From: Fistulifera solaris
Taxonomy: Eukaryota
Reading direction: 5' to 3'
Length of the DNA: 64,000 nt
NCBI GenBank assembly: GCA_030295235.1
Contig: AP026172.1
Span: 558,001 to 622,000, forward strand
Shown: piece after piece, positions 13,013 through 45,801 of the stretch
How the letters are laid out: every line of letters begins with the position of its first letter
How positions within the stretch are numbered: position 1 is the stretch's first letter
The notes under the pieces: model-generated
The model's database searches: none
What the model was told of the DNA's origin: nothing
What the model saw: the letters and a program-made list of their open reading frames with translations, nothing else
Translations under genes and position numbers: made by a program

Positions 13013-14885
13013 ATGACATTCTGCGGAGGAGCCGAGCGATCAGCCTCTCCCGTCGCATATACGGCGAAGGAATACCGTTCTCAGTCCGACGACACTCAGG
13101 CCGACGGTAGGCTTTCTGCTAAGAAGAGCATGGAATCAGGTGACGCCCTTGAAAGAGAGAACTCGGCATTCGGGGACGGGTACTCTCTGCACTCCCGTCC
13201 AAGCCAATCAACTTTCCATCGTCATCTAGATGACGAGATTGAGGTCGACTATGATCATGGGGCAACAGATCTTTATCGCCGCATCGAAAATAAGGACTGG
13301 GATGGTGCTCTCAACAGGTTGGAGTTTGCTCCCCACGAGGCACGCGCCTGGGTTGCCCGTCGCGAACCATCCAGTATGAGATTGAGATGGCGTTTACTGC
13401 CTATTCACGCTGTTTGCATTTTTCGCGCTCCATTGGCACTGATTGAAGCATTGATTGAAGTGTATCCAGATGGACCGATGCAAAAGGATGATCAAGGCAT
13501 GCTTCCTGTCCATCTAGCTTGTCGTAATGGTGCAAGCAAGGGCGTCGTCTTGACGTTACTTGAGGCGTTTCCGGAGTCACTGAAGGTGAAGGATCGTAAG
13601 AATAGGACTGCAGTTGATTTGGTGGCAACAAGTGAGTCCGCCAACAAGGAAGCGGTGCTCGTTGCAATTCGTCGATTCCAGAAAGAAACTCAGTATAACG
13701 GCGCTGCAACAGTAGCGACGATAGAAACCGCACCTACTGTGCAGGAGGTGGACTATGAACATCGCACGCTGCTCTTCCGAATGATACTAAAAAAAGATTG
13801 GAATAATGCTTTAAGTCGAGCTGTAAGCCATCCCGATGAAGCTTGCACCTGGATTGTCACAAAGGGGTTCAACGGAAACCTCCGTTTTCTTCCTCTTCAT
13901 AAAGCTTGCGTCCTGCAACCACCCGACTCGATCGTAACAGCTCTGTTGAAGGCATTTCCAGATGGAGCAAAAAATACTGACCAAGACGGATGGCTCCCCT
14001 TGCACTGCGCGTGCTTTTATGGCGCTAGCGAACATGTTGTCAACGCTCTTTTGTTTGCGTATTCGAAAGGATCCCAGACCAAAGACGACGAAGGTCGTTT
14101 GCCTCTTCATTATGCCTGTATCAAAGGAGCCCCGAAAGCTGTGATTGACGTTCTTTTGGCAAGTTTTTCTCGCGGGGCCATGGTAAAGGATGATGAAGGT
14201 CGACTAGCTCTTCACCATGCGTGTAGCAAAATGCAGAAGACTCCGTTATCGAAGCGCTTCTTAAGGTATCTCCAAAGGCAGCTCAGACTAAGGATGATCA
14301 AGGCCGTCTTGCTTTGCATCACGCTTGTCGTAAATGCACAAGCGATAAGACTATACGTACACTTTTGCGGGTATATCCTATTGCTGCGCAAATTAGAGAT
14401 GACCAGGATAAGCTCCCACTCCATTATGCCTGTCAACACGGTGGCAAAAGGAGATCATCCAGTTACTGCTGCAGTCGTATCCGGAATCGGTCAATGTCCC
14501 CAATGGGCTCGGGCAGACTCCCCTAGCCGAAATTAAAGCGATGAACAACCCCAAATTCGAAAGCATCGCCAAAATGATGGAGAAAATTAAGAAGGACCAT
14601 GATAAAAAGCGCGGTATTGAAGGCCCAAGTCCAGTTTTGGAATCAACTGTGCGTGATCTGAACGAAAAGATTCAGAACTTGGAGAAGTCGCTAGGAAAAG
14701 TAACTCTTTTGGGTAAGGAAATGAAGCAAGACTTAAGGAAAGGAAAAGACCCCGTCATGGTGATGGAAAAGTTTTCAGACGCTTTGATCGACCTTGGTAG
14801 TCGGTCAAAAACTCCTCTAAAGTCTCGACAGCAGCCCGCCCCTCCTGCTAAGGGAATATTTGGTCGTGTAAAGCAAAATGCATAG
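13013..14885 (+). CDS. Multi-ankyrin-like (LPLH) repeat protein (frameshifts ~14230-14520)
   Basis: Repeated D.G.LPLH.AC units in two blocks, each preceded by L...I..KDW..AL. The repeats continue in ORFs 14314 and 14541. Confidence 0.85.
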
Positions 14886-15288
14886 GGATCGCATTGAGAT
14901 GATGCATTTGCCTGTGGAAGTTGACGTTGCATATTATATTATAGTAAGGTTCAAACTAATGGAAACGTGGTACTCCGTAACCAAGTATATTCATCCTGTG
15001 TAAGCATATTAAGAACTTTTAGTTTAGGATCGAGAATTGCTATAAACCATTAAAGACCGTATTTTTTGGCGATCTGAATCTAGCTTCAGTACCGCATATT
15101 GTGGAAAAATCCGTCAATTCGAATTTCTTATCGTTAAGTGGGAAACCAGCTTCGAAATATTTGGTTCGTGGTATTTTGTCTTTTTCCGCGAGCTCGATTC
15201 TGTTTATTAGCGAACACGGCGTTTCATTTTTGTTAACAAGCCGTTTCCTTATTTTTCAAAAGATAGATCTATAGGGAGGAACAACACC

Positions 15289-15999
15289 ATGAAAATATTG
15301 TACACAATCGTTTTTACTCCTTTGGTCTGGGCAAGATTAAACAGTAAGGAAAGTACCGACCATGTCCCAGCCGACCGTGATCTTCAATCTCAGTGCGCCG
15401 CTTTGATGGATCGAGTAGGCTTCAAGTTTCCTTTCGTCGTTGATTGTTCATGTAAATTTGGATTTCTCTCGCTTAATTGGGAATGTAAAACGGATATTTG
15501 TCCTGAAGAGCTTGTGAAGGACGTTGGCGCCAGCTGGAATTCGACAACACTACCCTTCGATAAATGCCTTGCGCCAACATTCAAGGGTAGATACGACATG
15601 AGGGATGACATTCTTCAAACAACATCATGTTCAGGTTCTAGTAACGTAACTTTCAATGCAAGTGCGATTGCCAAGGAAGCAGGAGTACCAAATCTCGCAG
15701 CGACTCTGACCACGTTGGACGCCCCAGAGATTTGCGTCACAACAAAACACAAGCCAAATGATTTCAAGTCGTTAACTTCATGCAGTGTGACTTTAGACAA
15801 TACAACTTGCCCCTGTGAGGTCTGCGAAGGCGGCAAGGAAGTGAAGCTGCTATGTCAAGATCTTCTCGCGTCAAAATTTCCTGACATTCCGCCCGCAGCG
15901 TTGGGAATCACGACACAGTGCGTCGGATTAAACACAATTGACCCAGCACTTCTCAATCGTACAAAGTTTGTTGCTAGTCAAATTCAGTCTGTTCCATAA
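15289..15999 (+). CDS. Secreted cysteine-rich hypothetical protein
   Basis: Intact 236 aa ORF with a signal peptide (..PLVWA|R), a DRDLQ propeptide-like motif and many Cys. Confidence 0.75.
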   Translation: MKILYTIVFTPLVWARLNSKESTDHVPADRDLQSQCAALMDRVGFKFPFVVDCSCKFGFLSLNWECKTDICPEELVKDVGASWNSTTLPFDKCLAPTFKGRYDMRDDILQTTSCSGSSNVTFNASAIAKEAGVPNLAATLTTLDAPEICVTTKHKPNDFKSLTSCSVTLDNTTCPCEVCEGGKEVKLLCQDLLASKFPDIPPAALGITTQCVGLNTIDPALLNRTKFVASQIQSVP

Positions 16000-17934: not shown

Positions 17935-18511
17935 ACTTTCAATGAAAAGAGTTCATGCATGAGCAAAATGCACACGATCTGCAAAAATGAGGCGTGTAAG
18001 ACCTTAATGGAAAAGAGATCTGGTTCGTGGTTTTGGTGGAGGGAGTTGCCTGATACAATCAAAATCATAGTACCAACATAAGAAAATGTTCTTGATATTT
18101 TACGGACGGATTCTACTTAATGGCGAAAATAATATTTAGGAAATCCGGTTGAGGGAATGTCTTTCATGCGCTCGAAGAGGTACCTGTGCGACGCGATAGT
18201 CTCTAAAAATTTGGCGACGAAAAAACGGCTCCCCATTTCTTTCCAACACGACTTGACCAGTTTTCGCGGCACATCGTTTTGTGCAAACATGCAAAAACTG
18301 CTCCGCTCCAGTTTTGCAGCATTGAATGGCTACATAGAACAAGAAGATGTTTCAGTCGCATGTAAACCGATCTCCGGTATGCTTTGATGCCAAGGGCATT
18401 GAAACTTTGCTGCGCATACCTTTCTTCTCACAAAAAATCAACGAACGAAAAAGTTCTCAAACCACAACCACTTAACCATCATAACACCGATCGATCAGCA
18501 CTTCTTCGAAC

Positions 18512-19122
18512 ATGTCTCGCATCTCTATGACACTGTGGATGTTCATGAGCGTGGTACACTACGCGACTTCCGAACGTTCTTGTGGTGTGTCCTTATCACC
18601 CTGCCCAAGCGGATGCTGGAATCCCACTGCTCAAGTGCAAGCCGATGGCCTTCGCATCTGCGAAGTTGTCTCTCCGGCTTTTACAGTCCCGACAACGATG
18701 ATGCGCAATACTCTTGCGAGACCAATCCAAGTGCTTGCAATCCTTGCCCCAAGCAAGGATTTCTTCGGGGCCTTACGGGGTGCTCGTTCGGATCTGACAA
18801 AGAACAAATCAACGTGAACAACTTCACAATCGCGCCCGCCACGGAAGAGGAAGATCCCAAAGGTGGCGACGAAAAGATGAACAATGGAATGAGCAAGATG
18901 ATATACGCCTTGATCTTTTCGCTCGTGATCATTGGCTTTGTATACATCCGAGCCCGTATTCTGGATTGCCGAACGCGTCACAAGAATCGAAAAACCAGAC
19001 CAATTCCTCCTCCGCCGACAGATCCCAAACCAGAGAAGACTTTAACTGCGGCTGATCCAGAGGAGCTGCATTGTCCGGCGGTCGTGGAGAGCGGCGTTGA
19101 AAAGGACATTGAGCAGGGATAA
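18512..19122 (+). CDS. Small type-I membrane protein with Cys-rich ectodomain (frameshift near 18670)
   Basis: Signal-like N-terminus, CPSGCW..GFYSP..C..CP, TM segment (IYALIFSLVIIGFVYI) and a basic/Pro-rich tail. Confidence 0.6.
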
Positions 19123-19535
19123 CCTTACAAAAAACAAGAAATGAAAAGTAAACTAAAAGATAAATGGTACAATGACTAGACTATGATATACGTACAACTG
19201 CGTTGCTTAGTGTTAATTTTGTTGTATCCAAGGAGTTCTGTTTACCATTCTCTTTGGTTGTATTGAAACTATTAGCAAAACGAAACATGACAAATTGTCT
19301 CGTGACTGATACCAATCGTGCTCACGAACGGGGACTGCATATGTATAGAGGAAAACAGCAGAGCCCGCCACGTTCGGGTTACGACTATTATTTAAAGGAC
19401 GGAATACCATGTTGCTTAAGTATTGAAGCAACGGAACGTGTGTCAGCCTGGCTTTCGCGCCACTCTCAAGATACTTTCGAGTGGATACAAGTTCTCGGCT
19501 CCGCAAGCTGCTCGGGATGACGACTGGGGAGGAGG

Positions 19536-19814
19536 AGAATCTCCACAGCGAATCTTCGGACCGCCGCTGTCGACGCGGCGCATCCACTCGTCGACCCCCT
19601 CTCTAATTATTTACTCCGTATATATTATTTATTCAACTCATCTCACTTCCAATCCACACGGCATTGGTGAGATCTTGTCAAAAAAAAAACAAAAAATAAC
19701 AGCAGCCAGCATTGACCCCGTCAGACTCGTATACATTTGAAGAAACACTACGAACATGATGTTGATGGGTACGTTTTTCACTACACGTTTCGATCTGTCT
19801 ATAATATGAATCTT
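19536..19814 (+). promoter_or_regulatory. Candidate YGAATCTH boxes upstream of betaine lipid synthase
   Basis: CGAATCTT at 19549..19556, TGAATCTT at 19807..19814 and near-match AGAATCTC at 19536. Confidence 0.5.
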
Positions 19815-19891
19815 CCGAGTGTATCGGCAAAATGTCGTTTTTTTTCTGTTTTGTTATCTCTATCTCACAAAGGCTTGATTCAGACACAATC

Positions 19892-21959
19892 ATGTCTTCG
19901 GAGTGGTTCAATCCCTACACTGCCGTCGGTGGTACTGTAGCCATGTTCTACATTTTACGCAAACTGTTGAAAGAAAGTTTCAATATGATTGATACGATTT
20001 GCAACCGCACTTACATTTACAACATTTGTTGGGAAGATCCGGCGGTCGATCACCAAATCCTTAAAATTAAGAGCGACGATGTCATTTTCCGCATTTGCAG
20101 TGCGGGTGACATTGTGCTGGATTACGCTATTGAAGGACCCGCCAAGATTGTTGTCTGTGACATGAATCAACATCAGTTGTGGCTCTTTGAGCTCAAAATC
20201 CGCATGTTGCGCGATCCAAATCTCACCTATGACGAGTGGTGGGGTATTTGGGGATCTTCCGATGTCACCGTGGCCATGAAAGTCTGGAAACGGATGCGTC
20301 ATACCATGTCGGGCGGAGGTCGCAAGTGGTGGGATGGACGGATTGAACGTGTTTTTCGCAAGGGCTTTGCGACGTCGGGGTCGACTGGTTTTGCGGCCAA
20401 ATTCTTGATCCCTTGGCTCATGTACGTGGTCGGATTTGATATCAAGGCTTGGGCGGAAACTGGTTTTAGCCACGAGTTCATCTCCAAAAATTATCAGATG
20501 ATTGAGCGATCGGCTTGGTGGTTCCGTCGTCTTTTTTCCCGGAATTCTGGCGCCGTTTGCGGGAGTTCCTCCCAACCAAATCGGGCCCGAATTTTATACC
20601 ACCGAGTTTTATGAAGGTATCTTGCGTGAAATCTTCTTGGATCCGGACTTTGGTACGACCAATTACTTTTACCGTTTCTACTACGAGAAGGGTTACAAAG
20701 ATCAAACCTGCTGCCCTCGCACTTTGCAGAAGGAGCACTTTGAAGCCTTGAGAGCGAATGCCTCTTGCTTTGAGTGGCACCATGCGACAGTCCAGGAAAC
20801 GATGGAGCGCGTCGCCCCTCGAACTTTCACCAAGTTGGTTCTCCTCGATCACATGGATTGGATGCCCAACTCTATCGTACACGACGAATGGATTGCGTTG
20901 CAACGTGCGTCTGTACCAGGTGCTCAGGTGCTGTGGCGCTCGGCTTTCACAAAAATGGATGACAAGCCATTCTTCAATAATCTCGACATTAAGGATTTGA
21001 GCCCGCAATGGTACAGCAAGGATCGTGTCAAGATGTACCCTGGCACATTTGAATGTTACATGCCGATCAATCCCTTCCCGTTCGTCGATCCGGAACCATC
21101 GCCCTGCCAAAAGGCTTCGTTCGCTCGCAAGGTCAAAACAACGACCAAGATGATTTTGCACCCTCTTACAGCCGGAAGGGTGGATGCCCACGGAGACAAA
21201 ATGTCCTCATTCTATGCCGAGCAAGCAAAGGGATACGATGCGGTTCGAGAGAACATGTTGGTGGCACGACCCGAGATGATTTCTGGTTTTGGACCTATCA
21301 AGCAGGGGCACACATGGCTTGATATCGGAGGTGGTACAGGACGAAATTTGCATTACTTACGTGCCCAACTCGATAACTTTGAACGCATCGTGGTTCTTGA
21401 TATCTGCCCTGAGCTCCTAGAAATTGGGGAAGAATCGGCCCGTCGCTCGTTCACCCCAGCCCAGTGCGAAAAGATCAGCTGGTTATGTTTGGATATCAAT
21501 GCCAAAAATGTTCGACAAGAGCTAGCCAAACATCTAAACAATGACTTGCATCGTGGCTTTGATACCATCTCGTTCAGTTATTCACTCAGCATGATTCCGG
21601 AATGGCAGACGGCTTTACTGTCTGCTCGCAATCTCATGTCGGAAGACGGACGTGTGATTATATCTGACTTTGACACGTATACTCACGAAGGCAAATCGTG
21701 GAAAGACTGGGCTATTCGCACCTGGTACAAACAAGACGGCGTCCGCATCGAAGCAAAGACCCGAGAGTTCATTACGGAGACAGCGTTCCCGAGTGATCGT
21801 TTCGTGGTTACAATGGCACGCTTTCAGCGCAAGCTTGCCGGGGTCTGGATTCCTCATTATGTCATGTGTTGCCGAAAAGAGACAATCACAACGTCGAATG
21901 GTCTGCGACGTCCTTCGGCGTCGAATTTGATGGCACTCGACGAAAAGAAAAGCGATTAA
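19892..21959 (+). CDS. BTA1: Betaine lipid (DGTS) synthase: BtaA/DUF3419 domain fused to BtaB-type SAM methyltransferase (frameshift in T run near 20535)
   Basis: YIYNICWEDPAVD, CDMNQHQLWLFELK, LLDHMDWM and VLWRSA are BtaA-like. SFYAEQAKGYDAVRE, WLDIGGGTGRN and FSYSLSMIPEW are BtaB-like. Confidence 0.9.
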
Positions 21960-22124
21960 GCGCCGGTATTACTGAACACCAAAATGTATGCTCTAGTGAC
22001 AGGCAGCTATAATACGAAACTAAACTGATTTTGTATAATTTCAAAAACGTAATTCAGATCTTGATTTCCGTTGATAGTGCGTAGCGTCGTATGTCTTGTT
22101 GTATGACTATTGGATACTGTTTCA

Positions 22125-23873
22125 TTATTCAAAGTCAAGCACTTTTCGTGGTGGAGATTCGGATGCATCACCCAAAGCAACCACAACCACACTCATGTTA
22201 TCACGGGAGCCCAAGCTGAGACATTCCTGCAATAGTTTATCGGCAGCATCGACAAGGGCTACCTTGGACTGCTTTGCTTCAGTCGTCATGGTCTGTAAAA
22301 CAAAGTCACCTACTTGTTGGGGAGACATGACATCCCAGATACCATCACAGGCTACAACCATAAATAAGTCATGCTTAGATCGCTGCCGTATCACCACGTC
22401 CGGAACCGCCACTACCGCTTGCTGATCGGCGGGCAGATCTTTGTTGGTTTTGTATTCAAAATCACCAAAGGCTCGTGATGTCGCCAACAAATTTTCTTTC
22501 GATAATGCTACTTTGTACAATGTATGAACGGTTCCGTCTTCCTCGTACTTTTCTTCCACGACCGAGAGACCCGCGGCTTCAATTCTGGCTTGTTCGCTTG
22601 GCAGATTCGGTTTGTGATCCTGCGTCAAAGAAATCACTCTCATTCGTTCGTGCAAAGCAAGTGCGGCCATTTCTGGAATCGGTTTATCAGAACTTTCTTC
22701 TTCGGGCACACCCTTTTGAATGAGAATGCAACGACTATCCCCAACGTTCGCCACCACGATATGGTCCGGGGTGAGAAACGCAATCGATGCGGTCGAACCA
22801 CCCAATCGCGACGTTTTTTTCAAATCGGCATCGATTTCCAGGCACGTATTCTTCCACCAGTCTTCGGTAATGGCATCCATTGTCACACGTTTTTGCAGCT
22901 GTTCCGCCACAAATTTCGATACCTTTCCTCCATCGCCGTGACCATCACAAACCGCCGCCAACAGGACTCCATCCCCATACGCCTTGGTGACAATCGCATC
23001 TTCCATGGTAATACGATGACCCGGCATATCAGCCCAGGCGGCCATCAATGGCGTCGCCACGGTCACACGCAATCGCTGGGGCTGGGGAGATCCCAAAATG
23101 GAAAGATCGTTGGGTTTATAAAGCGAACGCGCCAATTTCCGGGCCGATGGTTCGGGACTCAACAATGCACTCCCGTACGCCGTCCGTAAATTCAAATCGA
23201 GCGGTGGTGTCGGATAGAGCGGCCGTAATAGCTCTAACACGCCGGCACTGCCCTTTTCGGCACAGATGTGCAAGGCCGTCCGCCCCAAAAAAGTCCCGTT
23301 GTTGCAATTGGAGTTCGACGGGTCCTAGTTCCAACAATAGTTGCGCCGCCAAAAGATTGTCGGAAAGCGCCGCCGCCATGAGTGGCGTAAAACCATCGGG
23401 TGGATAATTCATGTTGTACGCGCGTGTTTCGGTAAACAAATCGGGATTGTTTTCGAGCAACGACGTAATACGGATTTTGCTCTTTTCCCGCTTGTCTTTG
23501 GCTTTTTCCGTCTTGGCTTCGGTATTGTTGGTACAAAATTCGAGTACTTTCTTGGCGTTTTTGGTGCCATCACTGGCTTCTCCTAATTTGGATGCAGTTG
23601 TTTTGGCGCATTCGAGCACCAGTTGTTCGATGTGTCGTAATTGGTCGTCATGGACGGTGGGATGTTTCGTCCGTGGAGTTTGCGTGGCTTTTGACAGTTT
23701 TCACACACTATAGAAGACGGGAAAGCCGAAGCAGGCGGTACTTTTGTTGTTTTTGTGTTGGGAGCCACGACGGAAAAGATTGTTTGCTCCAGCTCTTCGG
23801 GTTTGGGTTTGTAATTCTTATCCGGAGCCACAAATTGCCCTAAACCTCGTTCAAACCATTTGCCGGCAAACAT
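22125..23873 (-). CDS. PP2C-family protein phosphatase with N-terminal ankyrin repeats (frameshifts near 23700 and 23290)
   Basis: GFTPLMAAA and GRTALHICA; GHRITMEDA, VCDGHG, VANVGDSRC, DHKP, SRAFGD, ACDGIWDVM, GSRDNMS. Confidence 0.92.
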
Positions 23874-24293
23874 TTTCAACAAGTCTCTTTTACTAAATAT
23901 GAAAATGGGTGTATGGGGAATGCTGAAGGTGTTGATAGGTAAATATAGCTTCCACAGATGATTCGTTCGTTTCAATGACAATGAGGGCTCATCATCGCGA
24001 GATGCGAGATGCCAGATGCCATATCGAGCGTGTCTGTACGGTTCTGCATTTTGCTCGGCCGGGATCGAGGATGGACGGCGGACGGACGTCGGTCTTGGTG
24101 GATGATGAAGAACTGTTACGTAGTACTTGCATAGACGCTGTTTTGTTGTTTTTTGCTGTTGTGCAGAGGATTAGATTTCTTTTCAACCATAGTATCAGAC
24201 GTGTGCCACACAATCGCAAAGCCTGCCAGAGTGACGCTTTCTCACATATTGAAAAGAAATCATTGGTGAAAAAAAGAAGCCATCGGAACGACG

Positions 24294-25489
24294 ATGACCC
24301 ACGGAGATACGAATAACCTCGAAGGTCTTAGCCTTTTCATGGGAGGATTGACAGTTGATACTTTACGACGATCGTCACCCTTACATCCTTCTAGGACATT
24401 GCGGATTAGTGAAGTCGAAGCGCAAGCTTCCACCACAGTTATTTTGGATACCAGTCGACGACCTCGATCGAATCCGCGGGTGCGGACTCCGATGCGATAC
24501 GAATCGCCCTTGGATCCCGACGAGTTTCGACGACGTCCAGAGGAAGATAACCGAATGGGTCTTTCGGCGGGGCATCCGGTAGGTGCGATGACGAATCGAG
24601 TACGTATATTCCGTGTTATTCGTAAAGCATGATCCTATGGGGGGGGCGTCTTTTCTGATGTTGTTCATGTACTCTCAAGTTGCAGATTCCGGAAGAACGA
24701 CCGGCAAAATCACGTAAACAGGGACCTTCTCATCGCAAAATAAGACGATGGAACAACGACAAATTTCATCGTATAGCACACGAGTTAAAAGGGACGAAAG
24801 CGGCCGATGTTTTGATGCAAGGAGAAGCCGAGCACAGATATCGCACCATTTTGGATCCCGAATTGCACCAATCCAAACAATTGACTCGGTACGTATTCTA
24901 TCTCGCACGCTGACACAGTGGAGAGTGTATGGGACCTCAATTCAATGTTTCTATGAGTAGATTCTTGCAGGACAAAACTTTACAAAATGTCCGTGATCGT
25001 TTCTTTGAAGGAGAATTCGCGACAATGCGTGTGCCGCAGAAAGTTCATCCCACACCGGCAGATTCTCCCAAGCAATGGATGAAACGGATTGATAGTCGCT
25101 TGCGACCGATTATTATTAAAGCCTGTAGCAACTCGTATCCGGCTACTTGTGTTGTACGGGTCTTGGAAGAGTTCTTGGTGGAGCAATACTATGACACGCC
25201 GTCCAAGCCATTGCCGCTGGATTGGTGGCATGACTTGTTGGTAAAAGCCCCGGAATTGGCACAAGTGAACGATAAAAGGGTAGTGGAATTTAGTTTTCCC
25301 GTCGATTCCTCACAAGGAGGCTTTCATCGATTATTGTTGCATGCTGTGGCACAATTTCATGGACTCCATGTCGTCTCCCGATTGATTCCGAATCAAGCGC
25401 GTTTTCTATCCGTCTCGGGGTACATAGATGCGGAAGGTCCCGTGTTTTCCTTACTGGATCACCTAGAGAGATGTGATGTGTCCTCTTAA
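24294..25489 (+). CDS. R3H-domain protein (R3HDM4-like); introns 24579..24685 and 24889..24960
   Basis: Two GT-AG introns join the three ORFs in frame. Motifs RRWNNDKF and FHRLLLHAVAQFHGLHVVS. Confidence 0.75.
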
Positions 25490-25558
25490 ATGAGGGCCAC
25501 GAGTCGCTATAATACTTGTGCTTTAATTTATTAATGATTATTTGTGGACATCTCGAAA

Positions 25559-27441
25559 CTATGATGAATTGTTGACTTTTTGTGACTCGTTCAAAAAGTC
25601 AAAGGTCATATCACCAATGGCTTGAGCAATGTTTCGGGCGGCATAGGGAACACCTTTGATCTTGGCTGACCGACTCAGTTGCTCCAGTTTGGTGGGATCG
25701 GTAAGCCACATGCAAACTTCTTCCGCAATAGCCATGGGATCCGAGTCACTGCAATAAGCGCCAAAGCCTCCCTCGACCACATACTCCACATTTCCTTCCT
25801 CTTGGCCCGGTAAAAATGAAGTAAGCATGATCGGGAGTGAAAGGGCAGCAGCTTCGGAAATCGTTCCTGGGCCCGCTTTTGATACTAATATGTCAGCCGC
25901 CACCATGTATTCGGCAATGTTGGATACAAAGCCTACTCCCAAAACGTGCACTGATCCAGCATTCTCCGTGTCATTCTTACTATTAACATCCACGGGTACA
26001 GCTTCTTCCTCTGTCTGACTTTCGGAAACATCACCCGACACTTCCACTGGGTCTCTCTTGTCGTCCGTGGTAGCTTTATCGCCATTCAACGATGTCAAGT
26101 AAGTACCTCCCATGGAAAGACTTCCTTGACTCAGCATGCGTCGTATCGAGCCTGTCACACCACTGGTTTCTATGCATCCCGGCGAAGGAATCACACTTTG
26201 GGGGCCGCAAACATCCATACTCAAAAATCGGTTGGTTAACCCCATCCGTTGCTTGGCCGCTTGCCAACGATTCAACACGTGTTTCCAGTCTCGTTCGGCA
26301 AATTCTTTCCGTAACTTTTCGTTGCGACCGCAAATTACCACAATTAACGCGTCAATACCCTGTGAAACAAGCTCCACGTACATGGCGTCGACAATGTGGG
26401 AAAGAGAACCGACTCCTTCACCACCACCCATGACCAATATGGTTGGTTTATCAATCACTGGTAATTCGAGTTGTTGGCGCACTGTTTGCTGGTATGCTTT
26501 TCCTTCCGGTGACATGCGATCTCCCAAATTTTCGGACTGCACGGCAAAGTCATGTCGAATGGGCAAACCCGCTAGTACAATCTTCTCCTCGGGTACTTTG
26601 CCTCGGGACATGGCTAACTGCTTCACTTGCTCGGATCCTACAAACATTTTGTCCACACCATTCGCGAACCAGAGACAATGTGCGGAACCCAAGTCGGTCA
26701 CCACGGTAAACATGGGCAACTTCTTGCCTAATTCTTTGGTGATTTTGCTGCACGACAAGACCGGAACATTTGTCATTAACGGATGGACACTGATGACCAC
26801 ATCGGGATCGTAACTTTTGATTGATTTGCGAACAGCTTTCTCACACATTAACTTTAAATGGGCATCGGCAAGCATTTCAAAGGCCCGACTGTTCGATACA
26901 TTATACACTAACTTCCACTGAGACGGGTGGGCACTCAAGTGCTTGTACCCTTTCACCAGGGAGTTGTACGGCGGAACTCCGTCTTTCTCCACAATATCTA
27001 AGAGGTCGTAGGTCGATCCCGGGAAAAGGAGTTGAAATTGCTTAGCCAGAGATTCCGCGCTGGCACGATGACCCCCACCAGTATCACTCGATAGGAAAAG
27101 AATCTTCAGACCTCGTGTTTGTTTTGACGATAACAATTCATCCATTTTAACAGTATCCTCCACGCAAATTTGCTTCAAATGAAAAGGTTAGCGAGAGAAT
27201 AAGATGCACAGAGGCCGGCCACAAAAAAAAGAGACACTCGTCGATAATTTTCGTTTCCGCTTTTTTTTGTCATCGAATCTCCTGCGTACGAATACGAATG
27301 TTGCTAAATAATTCGCACAACATTCGCAACTGAAACAATGAGAAAACAACACCATTTCGTAGCACTTACCGCCATGTTATGTTGTTGATGATTCGTAATG
27401 TCACGATTCCTTGGTGAATGGATTGCTTCAATGGCTGTCAT
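25559..27441 (-). CDS. MGD: Monogalactosyldiacylglycerol synthase (GT28), no obvious plastid presequence; intron 27173..27369
   Basis: SDTGGGHRASAE, PDVVISVHPLM, TVVTDL, GLPIR, LVMGGGEGVG, ICGRN, KAGPGTISEA, PGQEEGNV. An upstream ATG at 27477 is also possible. Confidence 0.95.
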
Positions 27442-27836
27442 GCTGAAGGATGTGGTTGGTTTCGTTTTGGGCAACATGGAAGAGAAAAGGCGGATGAAGA
27501 AAGCGCAAGGCGATGATGATGTAACGCAGTAACGCACTTTTGAAACGTCTATGTAATCAAACTAGTCGGCCTTACCGGCGTTTTACTATGCGATTATATC
27601 TAGCATGAAATTCTTTCTTTTGTACAAAACCGTTAAAAATATTGAGTGCCGCTGCAGTACAATACAAGTTCATACAGGGAGCAGACAACAGGCTCAAAAC
27701 GGCTAGGTTTATTATTTCCTAATGAGGTTATTGATACAACTACGAGCAATAATTAAGCAACATTGTAGACTTGATTCTACGTTACAATTCAATGTTAGAG
27801 ACAATAATGCGAAATACGTAGCCATTTGACGTATTC

Positions 27837-29212
27837 TCAAAGCTCGACAGTATCGGGTAAGTATCCTTGCTTGGATGATTTTCTCCTAGGCTGATTCAGC
27901 TCGCGTTGACTTTTGAGAAACAGCTTGCGTTCTCGGTCATTCACAATGATATCTTCGGGATTCACGGTTAACATTTCCGGATACGTCTCGCTAACATAAA
28001 CGTGTTGAATATCATACGGCGAGCCGGGTTGCTCGGCATCCGAAAAGTCATCGTCCGTAATCACTTCGGCACTAAATGTACGATCACGGTAAGCGCTGCG
28101 CCTTTCCTGATATTCACTGTTAGACGAGCGGGGTGATATCGTCTTCGCGCCTTCCGTTAAACTCGCATCATCCAAAGCGCCTCTGCCTTTCGAAGTGGAA
28201 CTCTTAGGACGTCGAGTTACGACGAAAAACTTTCGAAGAATACAGTAACCCAAGCCAATTATAAAGCAAATAATCACCGCAATGGCAATCAGGAAAATGC
28301 CAATATCTTTTATCCCACTGGAAGGCAAGACATCGGATTCGGGTGCGGTGATATCAGAAACAGTACCCTCATTGTCAGGCTGCTGCTCTGTATCGGTTTC
28401 GTCTGGCGGTACGTCTGTGCCCGATTCGTCTGGCTGTTCCTCTGTATCCGTTTCATCTGGCTGCTCTTCTGTATCAGTCTTCCCAGGCTGCTCCTCCGCA
28501 TCAGTCTCAGATGGGAAAACTACCTCATTTGAGCCAAACTCAATAGTGTTACTGTGAATGAGCGGGAGAACAGTGTCCTTGATGGCAGTGAAATTGATGG
28601 AAGGGATCGTCTCCGCAAAGTACAAGACAGTGGATCCCATCATACGAAAGCAATTTGTACTTGTCGGGTTACTCTGACAATTCACACTCAATATGGTCGG
28701 GTGCGAGGCGGAACCAACACCCCACAGTCCATCCAGACTTTGCGTTAGTTTTCGGCTACCGTTTAAGAACTTGTCACACACACCGCTCTCGAGCAGGAGC
28801 GACTGTCGCAAAAAACGGATCAGTTTTGTTTGAATTGATCGAGACTCCAGTATAGGATCACTAGTTGTTGTGAGCTCAAAATATACGTCACAACAAAACT
28901 GTTGCGTGTTCCGTAAACATCATCTTTCAAAGCAATCTGACAGGCTTTCGCCAATGAAGGGCCACGATCCGTATCCGCAGTCGTATTTTCATCATTTGCA
29001 GGCATTATTGCTGTCGTTGGAGCAGATATTGGGGAGGCTACCGGTGTAGGGAAGATATTTGTTGAAGTGGGAGCTCCGTCATTTTGTTGCTCAGCTGGAA
29101 TAGACGAGTTCGTTTGAAGGGCGCGGCGAGAAGGCGCAATTTTATCAATCGCGTGCTCGGATGAATGCACCGTGGATAGAAAGCACAGGGATAGAATGAA
29201 TGATCTCATCAT
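27837..29212 (-). CDS. Type-I membrane protein with acidic repeat stalk (frameshift ~28820-28870)
   Basis: Signal MMRSFILSLCFLSTVHS, RRALQ, P/T-rich region, Cys domain, acidic repeats and TM GIFLIAIAVIICFIIGLGYCIL. Confidence 0.7.
28375..28509 (-). repeat. Imperfect 27-bp coding tandem repeat, about 5 units (ETDTEEQPD)
   Basis: The translation reads ETDAEEQPG KTDTEEQPD ETDTEEQPD ESGTDVPPD ETDTEQQPD. Confidence 0.85.
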
Positions 29213-30002
29213 GGTTGATGATCGCGTGTCAATGATGTTGTAAATGTTGACGCTCGATGAGGAAGTCGTGATTATTGTGTGATCCCAACTCGATGAGGCA
29301 CTAGAGAAGTGACAAATACGATGAGTGCAGGTCCTGCAAAACGAAGAAGCAGTTGCACCTTCTTCTACTATCACATTCGCCTCTTACTGGGTTGTTATTG
29401 TTGGCAAGGGATGCGACGAAGTGTCATTATTCTTTCGAGGATCCTCACAAAATTTCGTTCGGCGGTCCTGTTCTGAAAAATCTTCGGAGCTCTTTCCAAG
29501 GTTTCATCCATTTTCTAAGTAAAACACAAGTTTGGCCGGCACGAGCCGTTCAACAAGCCGTTGGAGCTTAACTGTGGAGCTAAGTGCTCCCGGCGCGCCA
29601 TAGGAAACCGCAACCGCCCTGTCGTGAGCGTGAGTGCTGCGCATTTCACTTTCAAAAGTCTGTTGAGTCACGAGATGTCGTGGATCGTTTTGCAGTTGCG
29701 TTCGCGTGCTTCGAAAGCGGCAGCCAACCAAAAAAGCTTGTGCACTTGTGCACTTATCCACTATCGCCTAGAGTGTCTGCGCTGCTCAGTTGTTTCTACG
29801 TCATTCCGTCACCCCGCACCAACGCCAATCAAATTTTTCTCCCGTCGCTCCAAGATCTCCCGAAGAAAAACGAAAAGCGAACGTTTGCGAGAGAGATCGG
29901 ATCCAACAGGAAATTACAAAGAACGACGCGCTTTTAGTTCGACGTAATACATCATACAACTACCTTGCTTAACACATAATCATCAACAATAAAGCAACAA
30001 TC

Positions 30003-31256
30003 ATGACTGCAAGCAAACCCAAAGTTCTCCTCGCTTACTCGGGCGGTCTCGATACGTCGGTAATCCTCAAGTGGCTCAGCGAGAAAGGATACGACGTCGT
30101 CGCGTTTTGCGCGAATGTCGGCCAGCATGAAGAAGACTTCTCAGCGATCCAAGCCAAGGCTGTTTCTTGCGGTGCCAGCAAGTGTATTGTCTCGGATCTT
30201 CGCAAGGACTTTGTAGACAACTATGTCTTTGAAGCCATCAAGACGAACGCCATTTACGAAGGCCGTTATTTGCTAGGAACGTCCATCGCTCGCCCCTGCA
30301 TTGCCAAGGAGATGATCCGCATCGCAAACGAAGAAGGGTGCTCGTACATTGCTCACGGTGCTACTGGAAAGGGAAACGATCAAGTTCGCTTCGAAATGTG
30401 CTGCCAGGCTTTGAGTCCGACCATTCAGTGCGTCGCTCCTTGGCGCGATGCCGAGTTCATTGAGTCCTTCAAGGGACGCAGTGATTTGCTCGCGTATTGC
30501 ACAAAGCACAGCATTCCTGTGGATGCCAAGCCTAAAGCCAATTACTCGATCGACGAGAACCTTTTCCACACATCGTACGAATCGGGTATGCTCGAAGACG
30601 CCATGTGTGGACCAGATGAGAGCATGTTCAAGATGACCACGTCGCCCAAGACTGCTCCGGATGCTGGAGAAATTGTCGAAATCGAATTTGTGCAAGGAAT
30701 TCCCACTAAAATTACCAACAAGACCGATGGCACTGAAATTACGGACTCTCTTGAATTGTTCTTGTACTGCAACAAGATTGCAGGAAAGCATGGTGTAGGC
30801 CGCATTGATATTGTCGAAAACCGATTTGTCGGTATCAAGAGTCGGGGTGTCTACGAAACACCCGGAGGGACATTGCTTCGTGCGGCTCACATGGACCTGG
30901 AAGGGATCACCATGGACCGCGAAGTCAAGCGCATCACCGAAGGACTTTCGGCCGAATTCGCTCGCCTTTGTTACAACGGTTTCTGGTTCGCTCCCGAAAT
31001 GGAATTGATCCGTCACTCCATCACGTTCTCACAGCGCGATGTGACTGGTTTGGTCAAACTCGAATTGTACAAGGGAAATGTTACGGTGATGGGCCGATCT
31101 TCGCCCAAGGCGTTGTACAATGCGGACTTGGCTAGTATGGACCAAGAAGGCGGTGGTGAGGCCTTCGACTACAATCCGGCGGATGCCAATGGTTTTATCC
31201 GCATCAATGCCGTTCGTCTCAAGACTTATGCAGCTCTTCGCGCCAAGGATGCTTAA
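30003..31256 (+). CDS. ASS1: Argininosuccinate synthase
   Basis: LAYSGGLDTS, YLLGTSIARP, HGATGKGNDQVRFE, GRIDIVENRFVGIKSRGVYETP. The ORF is intact. Confidence 0.98.
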   Translation: MTASKPKVLLAYSGGLDTSVILKWLSEKGYDVVAFCANVGQHEEDFSAIQAKAVSCGASKCIVSDLRKDFVDNYVFEAIKTNAIYEGRYLLGTSIARPCIAKEMIRIANEEGCSYIAHGATGKGNDQVRFEMCCQALSPTIQCVAPWRDAEFIESFKGRSDLLAYCTKHSIPVDAKPKANYSIDENLFHTSYESGMLEDAMCGPDESMFKMTTSPKTAPDAGEIVEIEFVQGIPTKITNKTDGTEITDSLELFLYCNKIAGKHGVGRIDIVENRFVGIKSRGVYETPGGTLLRAAHMDLEGITMDREVKRITEGLSAEFARLCYNGFWFAPEMELIRHSITFSQRDVTGLVKLELYKGNVTVMGRSSPKALYNADLASMDQEGGGEAFDYNPADANGFIRINAVRLKTYAALRAKDA

Positions 31257-31369
31257 TTGAATGTTTAGTTTAGAACTGTCTATCCATCTATTTGCATTTT
31301 CTCACTGTCCAGTGCCTTTACCTATCTTTCTGTAAAAAATTGTGTCGATTCTATTTCCAACGAGAGTCC

Positions 31370-33147
31370 TCAAGTCAGCTGCGTATTTGGGGTAACAAAA
31401 TCAACATCTTCATCGTCGATGGTAAAGTTTTCCGAATCATCTGTTGGGAGGGCTATATGCCCATTCCTTCTCTGGCCTTCATCAGCGTCACCGCCGTAAC
31501 ACACTGGCTCTTCGACCATTATGCCATCCATTTCGGCTCTCCCCGGAGCGCCCACTTTGCGCTGTAGACTCAAAGGGACCCAATGTGCAAAATACAGATA
31601 AGTAAGAAGACCGCCCAATGCCATGCCAAAGGAAACCAATAACAAGAAACCTCCAAACGCACTGCGCGACGACACCAATATGGCGGTCGCTTGTGTCACA
31701 GCTGGGGTAAATTCCACGGGAATGGCATACAACCTTTCGCAGTTTCGCGTTTTCACGTCGTAATACATGGCTTCCAACAATTTTGTGGTGTCACAAATTT
31801 CTTGCCCACTCGGGCACCCTTTCATTTGATCGGTGATGACCTTGCCATCGTAGACCATTCGAAAGCCAAAATCAGATGTATACAAGGCTGGGTCCTTGCG
31901 GCCATCGAGATTGATCTCATGAATTTCAATGACCAGCATACTGGCATAAGTGGGCCATTGTTCGTCAAACATATCCATACTCGCCAAAATGGCCATGATC
32001 GTCGTGTCATGACCGGAAAACAACGCGAATGGCGGCACGTACGTTTCTCCTCCGCTCTCCACAAAGGTTTGTATGTTTTCCATGATTTCGGCACGTAAGG
32101 GTCCCGAAACCAGCTTGCTGTATTCCGCAAAGTCAAACGTCGCCAACATAGATTTTTGTTGGACGTAAAAACGCAATAGGCGAGAAAACATACTGTTTTC
32201 GCTATTCTCATCGCCTTCGTAGTCGTTGATTTTCGGATGTAGTTCACGATCGGAACAGATAGTCGTCAGAAGACAATCGGAGATATCTCCCGTACTTCCG
32301 AGTACTTCTTGTTGAAATTGACGCAGTTCGTTTGCATCATCAGATTCATTGAAAATCCGAAATTCACGCGTCCGGTAAAATCGTTCTCGGAATTCAGCCA
32401 ATCGGGGACACAAAGCGTCATGATCGCCTACAATATCACGTGTATAATCGGCAGTATGGATTATCAAACCACCAGTTTTCTCCAATTCGTTTCCCAACAT
32501 GGCCTGTAACAACAATTGTCCCGATTGTAAGGTTCTTTGTTCATCGTCCGATCGGAAATAGACGGCTTTGTCCAAAGAACCCCCCAATGGAAGATGCAAG
32601 TTTTTAGGGAAGACTCCTCCAAATAAGCACGTCGCAAATGTAATCCATTGGTGAGTTGTTGCTGCATCCCTTGTTCCAGCAATTGTCCGATTTGACAGGT
32701 CCCCGGCAAGAAGTTGGATAAATTGTATTGCGGAAATTGCAAAGCATCGTACACTTGTTCAAAGGTCAATAATTCACCGTCCGTAGCCCTATCGGCCGCC
32801 AAATACGTACTGGGAGGACACGTCCAGGGTTCTGCGCCATATCCCTCCCAGCAGCTGGCATTGTGCACGGGCGTCCGCGCACCATGCCGCATAATAACGG
32901 TGACATGCTGTAAACGACTTTCTCCGTGCGCTGCTGTAGTGAGTGGCGGAATTGTACGATTTTTCATTTGTTCCGTTGTCGAACATTGCGGTGGATAGTG
33001 TGAATAGCGTTGATACCACGATTCGGCATTCGCACTAAAGACGACTTGCGCCTGTGCGGGTGTGTTGCGTAAAAGAAGAAGAAGAAGCAGCAGCACCACC
33101 ACGGTGCTTTGTATGATGCGGCTGTTGCCGCTCTTCCATTGTTGCAT
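31370..33147 (-). CDS. Histidine acid phosphatase (branch 2) with signal peptide and C-terminal TM (frameshift near 32600)
   Basis: Catalytic RHGARTP; GQLLEQG; RTLQSG; LFSGHDTT (HD); WPTYAS; TM near the C-terminus. Confidence 0.92.
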
Positions 33148-33444
33148 CTTTGTGATATACAAGCGATTGCAACTCAATTCGGTGGAAGAGAGGCTATTGT
33201 CCTTTACTCTTCGTTTTGAGGCTAAAAGCGTATAGAGAGAAATGAAATAAATGTTGTGCATTTCTTCGCCAGTGTGTTTTTGATTTTGCGCTCGCCCACG
33301 TCCCAGTCCCACATCATTCCGTGAGATTGCGTCACGAATAATCAGTCCCACCCTGCTGTCACGAGTGAGAACGAGCATGAAACATGAACCGTGTACTCCA
33401 TTAGCGTTGATGCTATCTACGGAATAAGCAAGATCACAAAGATG

Positions 33445-33627
33445 AAGATTCTCACAAACGAAAGGATCGAATCTTCGCCATCCATTCATCCAGCATACAA
33501 AGTAGATAGAAAGGTTGTAGTGTCGGATTGCTGTCTAAAATAGCTAGAACTTCTGGCGTATAGTGTCCTCTCGATGGAACGCGACGGACACTCGTGAAAG
33601 CTGTGAATAGTGAATATCGAAGATTCA
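33445..33627. promoter_or_regulatory. Candidate PSR (Myb) YGAATCTH boxes in the bidirectional promoter between two phosphatases
   Basis: CGAATCTT at 33468..33475 (+), TGAATCTT at 33620..33627 (-) and near-match AGAATCTT at 33445..33452 (-). Confidence 0.55.
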
Positions 33628-33764
33628 AATTCATTCGTTTGAGAAAATAATGTAGTGTCATAATTTCGACGATCCTTTGGATCGGCACACAAAAAAGATC
33701 AGAAAGCATTTTTAGGCTTCATTTTTGTGACTGTTCCGATCATCCTTTGATTGACTCTTTGACC

Positions 33765-36286
33765 ATGAAATTGCTACCTGTACTACTATTAACGATTCTT
33801 TTTTTACGGGGCATTCGCCCAAGAGGATGCCATGTATTTCAATCGCGTCAATGTCTTTTATCCATGCTCGCAAGACGGTGCGGAATGCAATTCTGATAAC
33901 GAAACCGTCGCCGAGATCATCGATGCTTCTCCGGATGGAATGACATTGGTGTATACCGATGGTACACAAGGCCGTATTGGTTTTATTGACATTTCGGATC
34001 TCACCAATCCCCCTGCCGATGGGGACCGTCGATGTGGGAGGGGAACCAACGTCGGTCGCCGTCACAAAAGATGGTTTGTATGCGGTGGTCGCTGTCAACA
34101 CGTCTCCCGACTTTGTGAATCCTTCGGGTGTTATGCATGCGATTCGTATGGATACGATGGAAGTCTTGGTGACCACCGAACTTGGTGGGCAACCAGATAG
34201 TATTACCATTTCGGCCGACAATGCCTACATGGCCATTGTCATTGAAAACGAACGTGATGAAGATTTGGGAGAAGGTGGGATTCCGCAACTGCCCGGTGGA
34301 TACATCATTGTGGTCGACAAGACTGCCGAAGATCCTTCCGAATGGACGATGCAGAACGTCAATCTTACCGAGGCGCTTACGGCGGCGGGGATCGACTTTC
34401 CGGAAGATCCCGAACCCGAGTATATCGCCATCAATGCGGATAATGTGGCCGTCGTCACCATACAAGAGAACAATGGAATTGCGTTGATTGATCTTGCGAC
34501 AGCGACCGTGCTCGGTGCCTTTCCCGCCGGAGCGGTCGATTTAGAGATGATTGATATTGTCGAAGACAACGTAATTGACATGACTGCTTCGTTGTCACAA
34601 ATCCCTCGTGAACCCGATACCGTCACTTGGATTGGTACCGACTTCTTTGCCACGGCCAATGAGGGTGATTTGAATGGTGGATCGCGTGGATTCACCATCT
34701 TCAATCGAGATGGAACGGTAGTTTTTGACATCGGCAACTCCATGGAACATGCCATTGCTCGTGTTGGTCAGTATCCTGAAGGCCGTTCGGAAGCCAAGGG
34801 AAACGAACCCGAGGGACTGGCGTACGGGGTTTTTGGTAACGAGAATTTACTCTTTGTCATGAGCGAACGAGCTTCCGTTGTCCTCGTTTACAGCATTGCG
34901 GATCCTTCCAACCCCACCGAAGTCACTTTGAAGCAAATTCTCCCTTCGGAAGCTGGACCGGAAGGTATTGTCTTGATTCCTTCGCGCAATCTTGTCGCCA
35001 TTGCTACCGAAACCGATGAACGAGGCAACACGATTCGGGCGACGGTCGGCCTTTACGAGATGCAAGCGGGTGAACCCATCTTTCCCCATTTGACCAGTGC
35101 CGATCGCGAAGACGGTACTCCTATTCCGTTTGGTGCTTTGAGTGGCTTGGCCTGTGGTGATGCTCCCGGACTTTCGAATCCTCTGGCGAATACCATTTTC
35201 ACTATTGAAGACAGTTTCTACAATCAGAGTCGCATGTTCGAGATCGATACCAGTACCAAGACGCTCACGAGAGAAATTCGTTTGATGGATAGCAACGGTG
35301 CGCTTGCTGCTGTGTCTGCATCCCAAGTCAATGATGACATGACAGTCAGCTTGGATAATGAAGGCATTGCATTGGCTGACGACGGAACGTTCTGGATTGT
35401 CAGTGAGGGGGCGGGAACAGTCGGAGATCCCGAAGAACCTTTGGAATCTGCGAATCTGCTCTTGCACGTGACTGCTGGAGGTGAAATCGTTCACGTGTAC
35501 ACTTTGCCTGAAGACTTGAACGCCATTCAAGTCCGCTTTGGATTTGAAGGTGTCGCCGCTTACGGAGACTACTTGGTGGTCGCGTTCCAGCGTGCGTGGG
35601 GCGATGAAGCCAATCCCCGAATCGGGATCTTCAACAAAGCTACGGAGGAATGGAAATTCCTTTTTTATCCTTTGGATGAAGTCAAGTCTCAAAACGGCGG
35701 ATGGGTGGGTCTAAGTGACATCGCGCCTATGGGATCGGGAATGTTTATGGTGTTGGAGCGTGACAATCAAGGTACGAGATGAATTCTTTTATTTGATTTA
35801 TGATTTCGAATTAGCACTGACTAAACAATCATGTCGTTTGAATATTCAGGATCGAAGGATGCTGTCATCAAGCAATATTGTACCATTGACCTTGGTGAGG
35901 ATCTCAGTGCCGTCACAGATGGGGCTGACATAGCAAAAAGCGATTGCGTCGATATCATTCCGACATTCTTTGAAATGACGAAAGGGTCAACACGAGAAAA
36001 GTTTGAAGGTCTCTGTGTCACTGCACAAGGTGATATCTGGGTTAACAATGACAATGATGGATTGAATGATAATAGTGGCGAGAATGTCCTTGCAATTGTT
36101 GGTACAATTTCTCTTCCTGGCGATGATGGAAGTGCTCCCGTCGATGGCGCGACGGAAAGTCCAGCCACAAGTCCAGCGGGTGCTCCCGTTGGCGGCCCAG
36201 TTGGAACTCCGACAGGATCGTCTGCAGCATCCGCAATCTTTTCGTTGCCTGCCGCTCTGTTAGCTGTTGCCGCCATTGCGTTCTAA
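33765..36286 (+). CDS. Secreted alkaline-phosphatase-associated beta-propeller plus phytase-like esterase protein, probably GPI-anchored (frameshifts near 33800 and 34015; intron 35772..35849)
   Basis: GGEPTSVA, GGQPDSI, IENERDED, DPEPEYI, ATANEGD..GGSRGF, RSEAKGNEPEG, DNEGIA, RFGFEGVA, LERDNQG, EKFEGL, NDNDG. It ends in a S/P/A/G-rich stalk and hydrophobic tail. Confidence 0.8.
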
Positions 36287-45360: not shown

Positions 45361-45801
45361 CTCGGACGAGGTTTGCAGAAATCAGCTTTTGAATAATGAC
45401 AGCCACGCAACTTTTCAGTTCAAAATTTTTTTTCGATGTTAGCTGCGCGATGGATTTTGCTGCAGCTTCTGGTTACTAAAGTTGAGGTTACGGATTATTT
45501 TGGATGTCAATATTTTAGTACCGCGAACGGGAAGTTTACGATCTTTAGATAGCAAGCACGTTCCTCTTCTGTCACACTAGTACTTCGTATTTGTTCCCCC
45601 ATCACAGTAAACTTCAACTTGAAAGCGCACACACATCGACGACCATGACGCGATGAAGATACTGGTTTGAAATGCGCATTACCTGGTACTATTGATACGC
45701 ATTCGTCCTTCGTGGACTAGACTCAACGTTTTCAATCCGGTATTTTCCCTTGCTAAATCTAAGTCGACGAAGTACGACAAGACGTCTCTTGAAATTGTAA
45801 A

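Follow-up and report, generated by a model that had tools for sequence, protein, structure and literature searches.

In plants and Chlamydomonas, PHR1 and PSR1 act through the P1BS consensus GNATATNC. The Myb-coiled-coil family to which these regulators belong is described as controlling phosphate-starvation genes. The closest described system in diatoms is the PtPSR regulon of Phaeodactylum, in which GAATCT is given as the cis-element of the Myb-like SHAQKYF factor PtPSR (Phatr3_J47256) with reference to Sharma et al. 2020 (PMC13729311), PtPSR1 motifs are reported to occur in promoters of phosphate-induced genes (PMC13187674), and the targets described are phosphatases and lipid-remodelling genes. 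Here we analyze a 64-kb stretch of the nuclear genome of the raphid pennate diatom Fistulifera solaris (contig AP026172.1, positions 558,001 to 622,000; hereafter the window) and focus on a region of approximately 17 kb (19536-36286) that harbors genes for a BTA1-type betaine lipid synthase (BTA1), an MGDG synthase (MGD), a histidine acid phosphatase (HAP) and a phytase-like protein (PHY). GAATCT boxes in the 5' regions of all four genes mark these regions as putative promoters under PSR-type control, in a diatom other than Phaeodactylum. The proposed circuit is of a known, PtPSR-type kind, and what is distinctive here is the compact bidirectional promoter between HAP and PHY.

The locus shares with the PtPSR regulon the core GAATCT and the same kinds of target, and differs from it in three ways. 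It belongs to another species, YC follows the box in every case, and three of the four genes, grouped around a bidirectional promoter, lie within 14 kb of one another. The Phaeodactylum literature consulted reports no comparable proximity, nor is any evident from the chromosome assignments given there. Relative to P1BS, the box form GAATCTTC is an imperfect palindrome with one central base off, the centre being TC and not TA.

The reading that we favor, at a probability of roughly 0.6, is that the four genes are separate transcription units whose 5' regions carry boxes for a PSR/PHR1-type Myb regulator and which are controlled by phosphate limitation. Under such limitation the regulator would accumulate, bind the GAATCTYC boxes and switch on the betaine lipid synthase and the extraplastidial gamma-type MGDG synthase, which together would yield phosphorus-free lipids in place of phospholipids. 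The same regulator would also switch on a membrane-anchored HAP and a secreted or GPI-anchored PHY, which together would free phosphate from organic esters, both being driven from a single 614-bp bidirectional promoter. We infer the binding of a PSR orthologue to the boxes, the induction of the four genes by phosphate limitation in F. solaris and the cellular sites of the enzymes.

Placement and form of the boxes

A sequence-only reading of this DNA had reported the motif YGAATCTH at 19549(+), 19807(+), 27274(+), 33468(+) and 33620(-), and all five positions are exact; the single matches that it gave elsewhere, at 15075 and 58265, are likewise present. A sixth match, 22154(-), which falls in the final codons of a PP2C phosphatase gene within the region, had gone unlisted. 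The motif had been given as the site of PSR; its core GAATCT finds support in the literature (PMC13729311), and the full string with the Y and H flanks was found in no literature searched. The same reading had argued for enrichment from an expected rate of one site per 5.5 kb, a rate that presumes equal base frequencies. This argument fails, as dinucleotide shuffles put the expectation for 64 kb at 19.1 +/- 4.7 sites, or roughly one in 3.3 kb; 18 are observed, and at least 18 were reached in 58 of 100 shuffles.

Despite this normal window-wide count, the placement of the sites is non-random. The three 5' regions tested (19120-19891, 27146-27839 and 33151-33764) sum to 2,080 bp, or 3.25% of the window, and contain five of the 18 YGAATCTH sites (binomial p=2.2e-4); these five are also five of the seven sites outside our rough gene spans (p=1.4e-4). 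Local dinucleotide shuffles of the three regions expect 0.73 sites, and five were reached in 5 of 5,000. For the bare GAATCT core, 7 of 45 window sites fall in the regions, a number reached in 2 of 5,000 shuffles. Column-permuted control patterns reach five sites in 22 of 10,080 cases, and most of the 12 top-ranked patterns listed are themselves GAATCT variants. The remaining spacers that contain 5' regions, approximately 14.8 kb by our own sum, hold one YGAATCTH site (15075). The limits of the three regions and the gene spans are our own rough calls, with a check against annotation for the MGD model only.

The box in these promoters is longer than YGAATCTH, since the two bases YC follow the core in all seven GAATCT cores of the three 5' regions, giving the extended form GAATCTYC. 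A GAATCT-core element lies within about 500 bp upstream of the start codon of BTA1, HAP and PHY, and also of MGD if Met 27145 is its start. The BTA1 and HAP/PHY promoters carry three cores each, spread over 270 and 180 bp; in the latter, GAATCTTC at 33444-33451 and CGAATCTTCG at 33468-33477 form an inverted pair with a spacing of 17 bp (all boxes are listed in Table 1). Seven copies of GAATCTTC occur in the window, five of them in the BTA1 and HAP/PHY promoters (a count reached in 0 of 5,000 local shuffles), one within the opening codons of MGD (27100) and one at 814. A blind scan of 25,612 8-mers ranked GAATCTTC first outside simple A/T runs, after a poly-A word (p=7e-7). A duplicated promoter or transposon was considered as the origin of the common boxes and rejected: the longest words common to the promoters are 11-mers, and as the promoters share no word of more than 11 bases the boxes are not remnants of duplication.

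The site at 15075-15082 is the only one in a 5' spacer outside the four phosphate-related genes. Approximately 210 bp separate it from the first Met of a downstream open reading frame (ORF; 15211-15999, plus strand). The encoded protein is small and cysteine-rich, has an N-terminus resembling a signal peptide and belongs to no known family, and its gene may be a further target.

The four genes and their Phaeodactylum homologues

A Pfam scan of 18 ORFs from the region and its surroundings (45 ORFs in the window overall; cut-off E<=0.01) bears out the identities that the sequence-only reading had given to the four genes. The HAP and PHY genes are arranged head to head, with HAP starting at ATG 33150 on the minus strand and PHY at ATG 33765 on the plus strand, and the 614-bp spacer between them holds three boxes, with both strands represented. 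Divergent genes that start within 1 kb of each other and have elements in common in the interval fit the pattern of a bidirectional promoter. The boxes at 33468 and 33620, which had been assigned to a phosphatase promoter, do lie in one, but it is common to two divergent genes, and HAP/PHY is the one tightly coupled element of the locus.

HAP has a hydrophobic N-terminal signal, the motifs RHGARTP and GHDTT, a C-terminal membrane span and an acidic tail. Its nearest solved chains, both weak matches, are 4JOB (human ACP6, a lysophosphatidic acid phosphatase; E=9e-6) and 1RPA (prostatic acid phosphatase; E=7e-4). It is like such branch-2 histidine acid phosphatases in its RHGxRxP and HD motifs and its His_Phos_2 domain, and differs from them in carrying a signal peptide together with the C-terminal membrane span.

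PHY begins with a signal peptide and contains a GT-AG intron (35772-35849). At its C-terminus, a Ser/Ala-rich stretch leads into a hydrophobic, GPI-signal-like tail. No sequence-related solved structure was found for it. Its relatives number 7,505 at E<=1e-20, and the pair PF22494 + PF13449 is present in all 120 matches listed. A possible counterpart, Phaeodactylum PtPhos2 (Phatr 47612), also has a phytase-like domain and a signal peptide and is described as secreted and induced by phosphate starvation at log2 7.4; unlike PHY with its hydrophobic tail, it is described as lacking a membrane span (PMC7283521). PHY is as similar to proteins of marine gammaproteobacteria and cyanobacteria (49-53%) as to those of other diatoms such as Nitzschia, Seminavis and Cylindrotheca (49-54%), and this pattern may reflect an ancient gene transfer between the bacterial and diatom lineages. 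A gene for the GPI transamidase subunit Gpi16 (43912-45381, minus strand) lies 8 kb from PHY, a nearness that is probably coincidental.

The MGD ORF corresponds to F. solaris FisN_6Lh185, with 537 of 539 residues matching (P0248), which bears out the earlier assignment of the DNA to a diatom. A second MGD protein is 94% identical (P0249) and is probably the copy from the other subgenome, F. solaris being described as allodiploid with two subgenomes (bioRxiv 10.1101/2021.11.10.468027). The deposited gene model has a two-codon first exon (M-A; 27375-27370), an intron at 27369-27173 and a second exon from 27172. The alternative start is a conserved Met at 27145, close to which most of the near relatives read begin. 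The box at 27274, previously described as lying in MGD intron 1, does so under the deposited model but falls 130 bp upstream of the start codon if translation begins at Met 27145. A longer first exon from an in-frame ATG at 27477 (36 codons) was rejected, being unsupported by the deposited model and by the short N-termini of four of the six other relatives; the two of the six with long N-termini are unlike each other.

MGD contains the GGGHRAS motif with the catalytic His-Arg, has no presequence and carries a C-domain of about 270-290 residues. Its best Phaeodactylum match (P0329, 79%) lies on a contig of 2,535,400 nt, the size of chromosome 1. Phaeodactylum MGDgamma is located on chromosome 1, lacks a presequence and carries some 290 residues in its C-domain (Gueguen et al., PMC11638560). 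Like it, the MGD of the window has no presequence and a long C-domain, and its best Phaeodactylum match is on a chromosome-1-sized contig; by sequence it is of the gamma (extraplastidial) type. Arabidopsis type-B MGD2/MGD3 and diatom MGDgamma are described as isoforms without a plastid presequence that serve stress lipid remodelling outside the thylakoids (PMC11638560). The Phaeodactylum enzyme is described mainly for nitrogen shortage, and its response to phosphate is modest, at +1.02 log2 at 72 h (PMC11638560; Alipanah 2018 S1).

All four gene families have phosphate-starvation-induced homologues in Phaeodactylum. In the dataset of log2 changes at 48 h / 72 h without phosphate (Alipanah 2018 S1), BTA1 (42872) stands at +2.31 / +2.73, MGDgamma (9619) at +0.31 / +1.02, two HAPs at +1.68 / +2.29 (42763) and +2.97 / +3.83 (42561), the phytase-like PtPhos2 (47612) at +7.43 / +6.24 and a COG4222 protein (49693) at +7.55 / +8.06. 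The window HAP can be aligned by eye with J42763 and J42561 around the catalytic motif. The PhaeoNet module brown4 contains PtPSR (J47256) together with the phytase-like J47612 and the HAP J42561. The pairing of HAP and PHY thus appears to have an independent echo in Phaeodactylum co-expression, while the four-gene unit does not.

The BTA1, HAP and PHY genes are each spread over two or three reading frames. Relative to a near-identical protein of 688 residues (P0004), BTA1 breaks once, at a T6 run (20532-20537), with the BtaA-like DUF3419 domain and the BtaB-like SAM-methyltransferase domain both present; P0004 aligns by tblastn at residues 1-216 in frame 2 and 214-688 in frame 3, and Phaeodactylum J42872 reads through the break site. 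In PHY, a frame change at a C5 run (~34014) is confirmed against P0128 (95%), with the shift at 34010-34038. A second PHY break, which separates the signal peptide from the mature protein at a T7 run (33799-33805), is deduced from the DNA, as is a single frame change of HAP at a homopolymer within ~32560-32630. Homopolymer runs are present in all 11 same-strand frame junctions of the window, a GT-AG intron is impossible in four of these, and for two of the 11, comparison with near-identical proteins that are intact confirms a length difference of one base. As the junctions contain homopolymers and the F. solaris genome is described as assembled from pyrosequencing and later nanopore reads (bioRxiv 10.1101/2021.11.10.468027), the broken frames most likely reflect wrong homopolymer lengths in the assembly and are not signs of pseudogenes.

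Table 1. Features of the focal region and frame junctions of the window, in window coordinates.
Feature	Position	Strand	Remarks
5' region of BTA1-type gene	19120-19891	+	three GAATCT cores
BTA1 box GAATCTCC	19537		core only; 355 bp before ATG
BTA1 box CGAATCTTCG	19549-19558	+	343 bp before ATG
BTA1 box TGAATCTTC	19807-19815	+	85 bp before ATG
BTA1-type betaine lipid synthase	19892-21959	+	Pfam DUF3419 + SAM methyltransferase; single exon
PP2C phosphatase with ankyrin repeats	22125-24170	-	Pfam PP2C + ankyrin; three overlapping frames; interspersed gene
ORF previously labelled R3H	24914-25489	+	no Pfam match at E<=0.01; 5' region without box
MGDG synthase (MGD)	25559-27375	-	Pfam MGDG_synth + GT28_C (Pfam-matched ORF 25559-27187)
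MGD box CGAATCTCC	27274-27282	+	MGD 5' region
Low-complexity repeat-containing ORFs, previously labelled TM protein	27837-29383	-	interspersed gene
Argininosuccinate synthase (ASS)	30003-31256	+	both ASS Pfam domains; interspersed gene
Histidine acid phosphatase (HAP), branch 2	31370-33150	-	Pfam His_Phos_2 in both ORF halves
HAP/PHY shared divergent promoter, 614 bp	33151-33764		three boxes
HAP/PHY box GAATCTTC	33444-33451	-	294 bp upstream of HAP ATG, 321 bp upstream of PHY ATG
HAP/PHY box CGAATCTTCG	33468-33477	+	318 bp upstream of HAP ATG, 297 bp upstream of PHY ATG
HAP/PHY box TGAATCTTCG	33618-33627	-	469 bp upstream of HAP ATG, 146 bp upstream of PHY ATG
Phytase-like / choice-of-anchor-I protein (PHY), ~813 residues	33765-36286	+	Pfam choice_anchor_I + Phytase-like (PF22494 + PF13449)
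Frame junctions 1-4	852-951, 2943-3039, 14412-14533, 20502-20611		overlapping same-strand ORFs
Frame junctions 5-8	23119-23324, 23586-23700, 28823-28919, 32467-32758		overlapping same-strand ORFs
Frame junctions 9-11	33793-33893, 33944-34200, 55254-55396		overlapping same-strand ORFs

Competing explanations of the boxes and of the proximity

Several observations weigh against control of the four genes by a PSR-type regulator. The window as a whole shows no excess of the motif (YGAATCTH 18 against 19.1 expected, GAATCT core 45 against 48.0), the Y and H flanks met with no match in the literature searched, and the exact plant P1BS (GNATATNC) occurs at 20 sites in the window, none of them in the three regions, with no window-wide enrichment. 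The GAATCTYC and GAATCTTC extensions are derived from the same sites that they describe, which makes their p-values post hoc, and the limits of the three regions, like the gene spans behind the word intergenic, are ours. The MGD region has one box only, in the weaker GAATCTCC form, and Phaeodactylum MGDgamma 9619 rises only 2-fold, and at 72 h only (Alipanah 2018 S1). PhaeoNet assigns BTA1 J42872 to grey (unassigned), MGDgamma J9619 to darkgrey and HAP J42763 to red; as these modules differ, the four families are not co-expressed there as a single module. Pfam detected no Myb domain among the 45 window ORFs scanned, no PSR gene lies in the window, and a literature search naming F. solaris found no phosphate-limitation data. 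Finally, if the frame breaks were real, they would make pseudogenes of three of the four genes.

One competing explanation is coincidence, in which the genes are ordinary neighbors that happen to carry random hits to a short, degenerate pattern picked once the genes were in view. The motif was indeed sought in the sequence-only reading only after the genes had been noticed, our region limits were drawn with the sites already known, the motif is not over-represented window-wide, and 13 of the 18 sites lie elsewhere, mostly in coding sequence. However, the motif was drawn from the literature and not from the window; the concentration of sites has a p of ~2e-4 to 1e-3 under three null models; and the box was recovered by a k-mer scan that was blind to it. 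Two promoters hold three cores each within 270 and 180 bp, and the two following bases are an identical YC in seven of seven cores. Chance alone is an unlikely source of the pattern.

It is also improbable that the boxes, though genuine cis-elements, serve a different factor or signal, such as one of the many diatom proteins of the heat-shock-factor (HSF) family or a general nutrient or stress response that is not specific to phosphate. GAATCTTC formally fits a two-unit heat-shock element, GAAnnTTC. HSFs are described as frequent in brown4, a module enriched in stress functions (PMC7596299), and Phaeodactylum MGDgamma is reported to act mainly under nitrogen shortage (PMC11638560). Yet GAATCTCC, the form of two of the seven boxes, does not fit GAAnnTTC, and Phaeodactylum BTA1 is reported to go up without phosphate but down without nitrogen (PMC5825098). 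A generic heat-shock element was rejected on the distribution of its sites: of the 32 GAANNTTC sites in the window, only TC/GA-centred ones (five) lie in the three regions, none of the 25 other-centred variants does, and no three-unit element is present there; this restriction to TC/GA centres argues against such an element.

A separate issue is whether the proximity of the genes is itself functional. The sequence-only reading had proposed a physically clustered phosphate-response regulon, and of this the shared PSR-type boxes on phosphate-economy genes stand, while the cluster as a selected unit is not supported. Its remark that unrelated genes are interspersed is sound, with Pfam placing PP2C and ASS between the four phosphate-related genes. 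These four are found among eight or nine neighbors, with four or five unrelated genes between them, and only HAP and PHY are directly adjacent. No box is present in the 5' regions of PP2C, the R3H-like ORF, the TM protein, ASS (619 bp) or the ORF upstream of BTA1 (18403-19119). The 17-kb proximity is most likely a loose neighborhood and not an operon-like unit, and the closeness of the four genes may be coincidental.

The contrary view, that the 17 kb are a selectively maintained phosphate-stress neighborhood comparable to a fungal or plant metabolic gene cluster, in which linkage aids co-regulation through chromatin or joint inheritance, strikes us as doubtful. In its favor, four phosphate-related genes of four unrelated families lie within eight or nine neighbors, and HAP and PHY have a common promoter. 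Phaeodactylum BTA1 J42872 and the HAPs J42763 and J42561 are all listed on chr_1, as is MGDgamma on chromosome 1 (PMC11638560), and the best match of the window MGD is on the 2,535,400-nt contig. Phaeodactylum 42871, which has a phospholipid-methyltransferase domain and is the neighbor of BTA1 by gene identifier, is co-induced with it (+2.45 / +2.90). No counterpart of 42871 was recognized beside the window BTA1.

Against such a cluster stand the interspersed unrelated genes without boxes, among them ASS, which sits inside the locus here, is assigned to chr_11 in Phaeodactylum and is repressed there without phosphate (21116, -0.70 / -1.28; Alipanah 2018 S1). The Phaeodactylum chr_1 gene identifiers lie 100-300 apart, which, judged from identifier order, indicates the same chromosome but not adjacency; no phosphatase is among the significantly regulated genes listed near BTA1 by identifier (42866-42888); and PhaeoNet spreads the four families over different modules. 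The number of responders in a genome also weakens the case. When the starvation dataset is sorted by 72-h change, +1.02 falls at row 1141 of 6,016, so that ~1,140 genes are at least 2-fold up. With the Phatr2 gene models taken to total ~10,400, ~11% of genes are induced at least 2-fold without phosphate, and four responders among eight or nine neighbors are therefore expected by chance many times per genome. By our arithmetic, at least four of eight neighbors would respond with a probability of ~0.007 per position, which amounts to tens of such places per genome. Similarly improbable is the fuller history, proposed because BTA1, MGDgamma and HAP are all on Phaeodactylum chromosome 1, in which an ancestral, selectively retained raphid-pennate phosphate-stress neighborhood linked these three before the split of Fistulifera and Phaeodactylum, and PHY, from a family no closer to diatom than to bacterial proteins, was later placed head to head with HAP and joined to the PSR circuit by a bidirectional promoter with GAATCTTC.

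Neighboring features and biological meaning

Outside the four genes, the label R3H on the ORF at 24914-25489 is not sustained, as the translation has no Pfam match at E<=0.01, although it does contain an R-x3-H stretch. The low-complexity ORF between MGD and ASS includes a 27-bp tandem repeat (28374-28496; 4.6 copies, 74% matches) that would encode a nine-residue protein repeat. A MoaA-type gene for Mo-cofactor synthesis (Radical_SAM + Mob_synth_C; 2473-3797, plus strand) lies 1.3 kb upstream of a full-length gene for nitrate reductase, a molybdoenzyme (5059-7626, plus strand), on the same strand, and forms a second functionally matched pair of neighbors in the window. A search for RNA families and tRNAs across the 64 kb returned none.

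If the boxes work, the PSR circuit known from Phaeodactylum would also operate in F. solaris, an allodiploid, oleaginous diatom that serves biofuel research, and would span both halves of the phosphate-stress response, lipid substitution and the scavenging of organic phosphate. With its two subgenomes, F. solaris would allow the boxes to be tested by footprinting within a single species. Nutrient-stress gene clusters are, to our knowledge, hardly known in algae, and the clustering, if true, would be of wider interest as a eukaryotic-alga analogue of such a cluster, for which the present evidence is insufficient. The 614-bp HAP/PHY spacer would constitute a compact natural bidirectional phosphate-switchable promoter, useful in diatom engineering.

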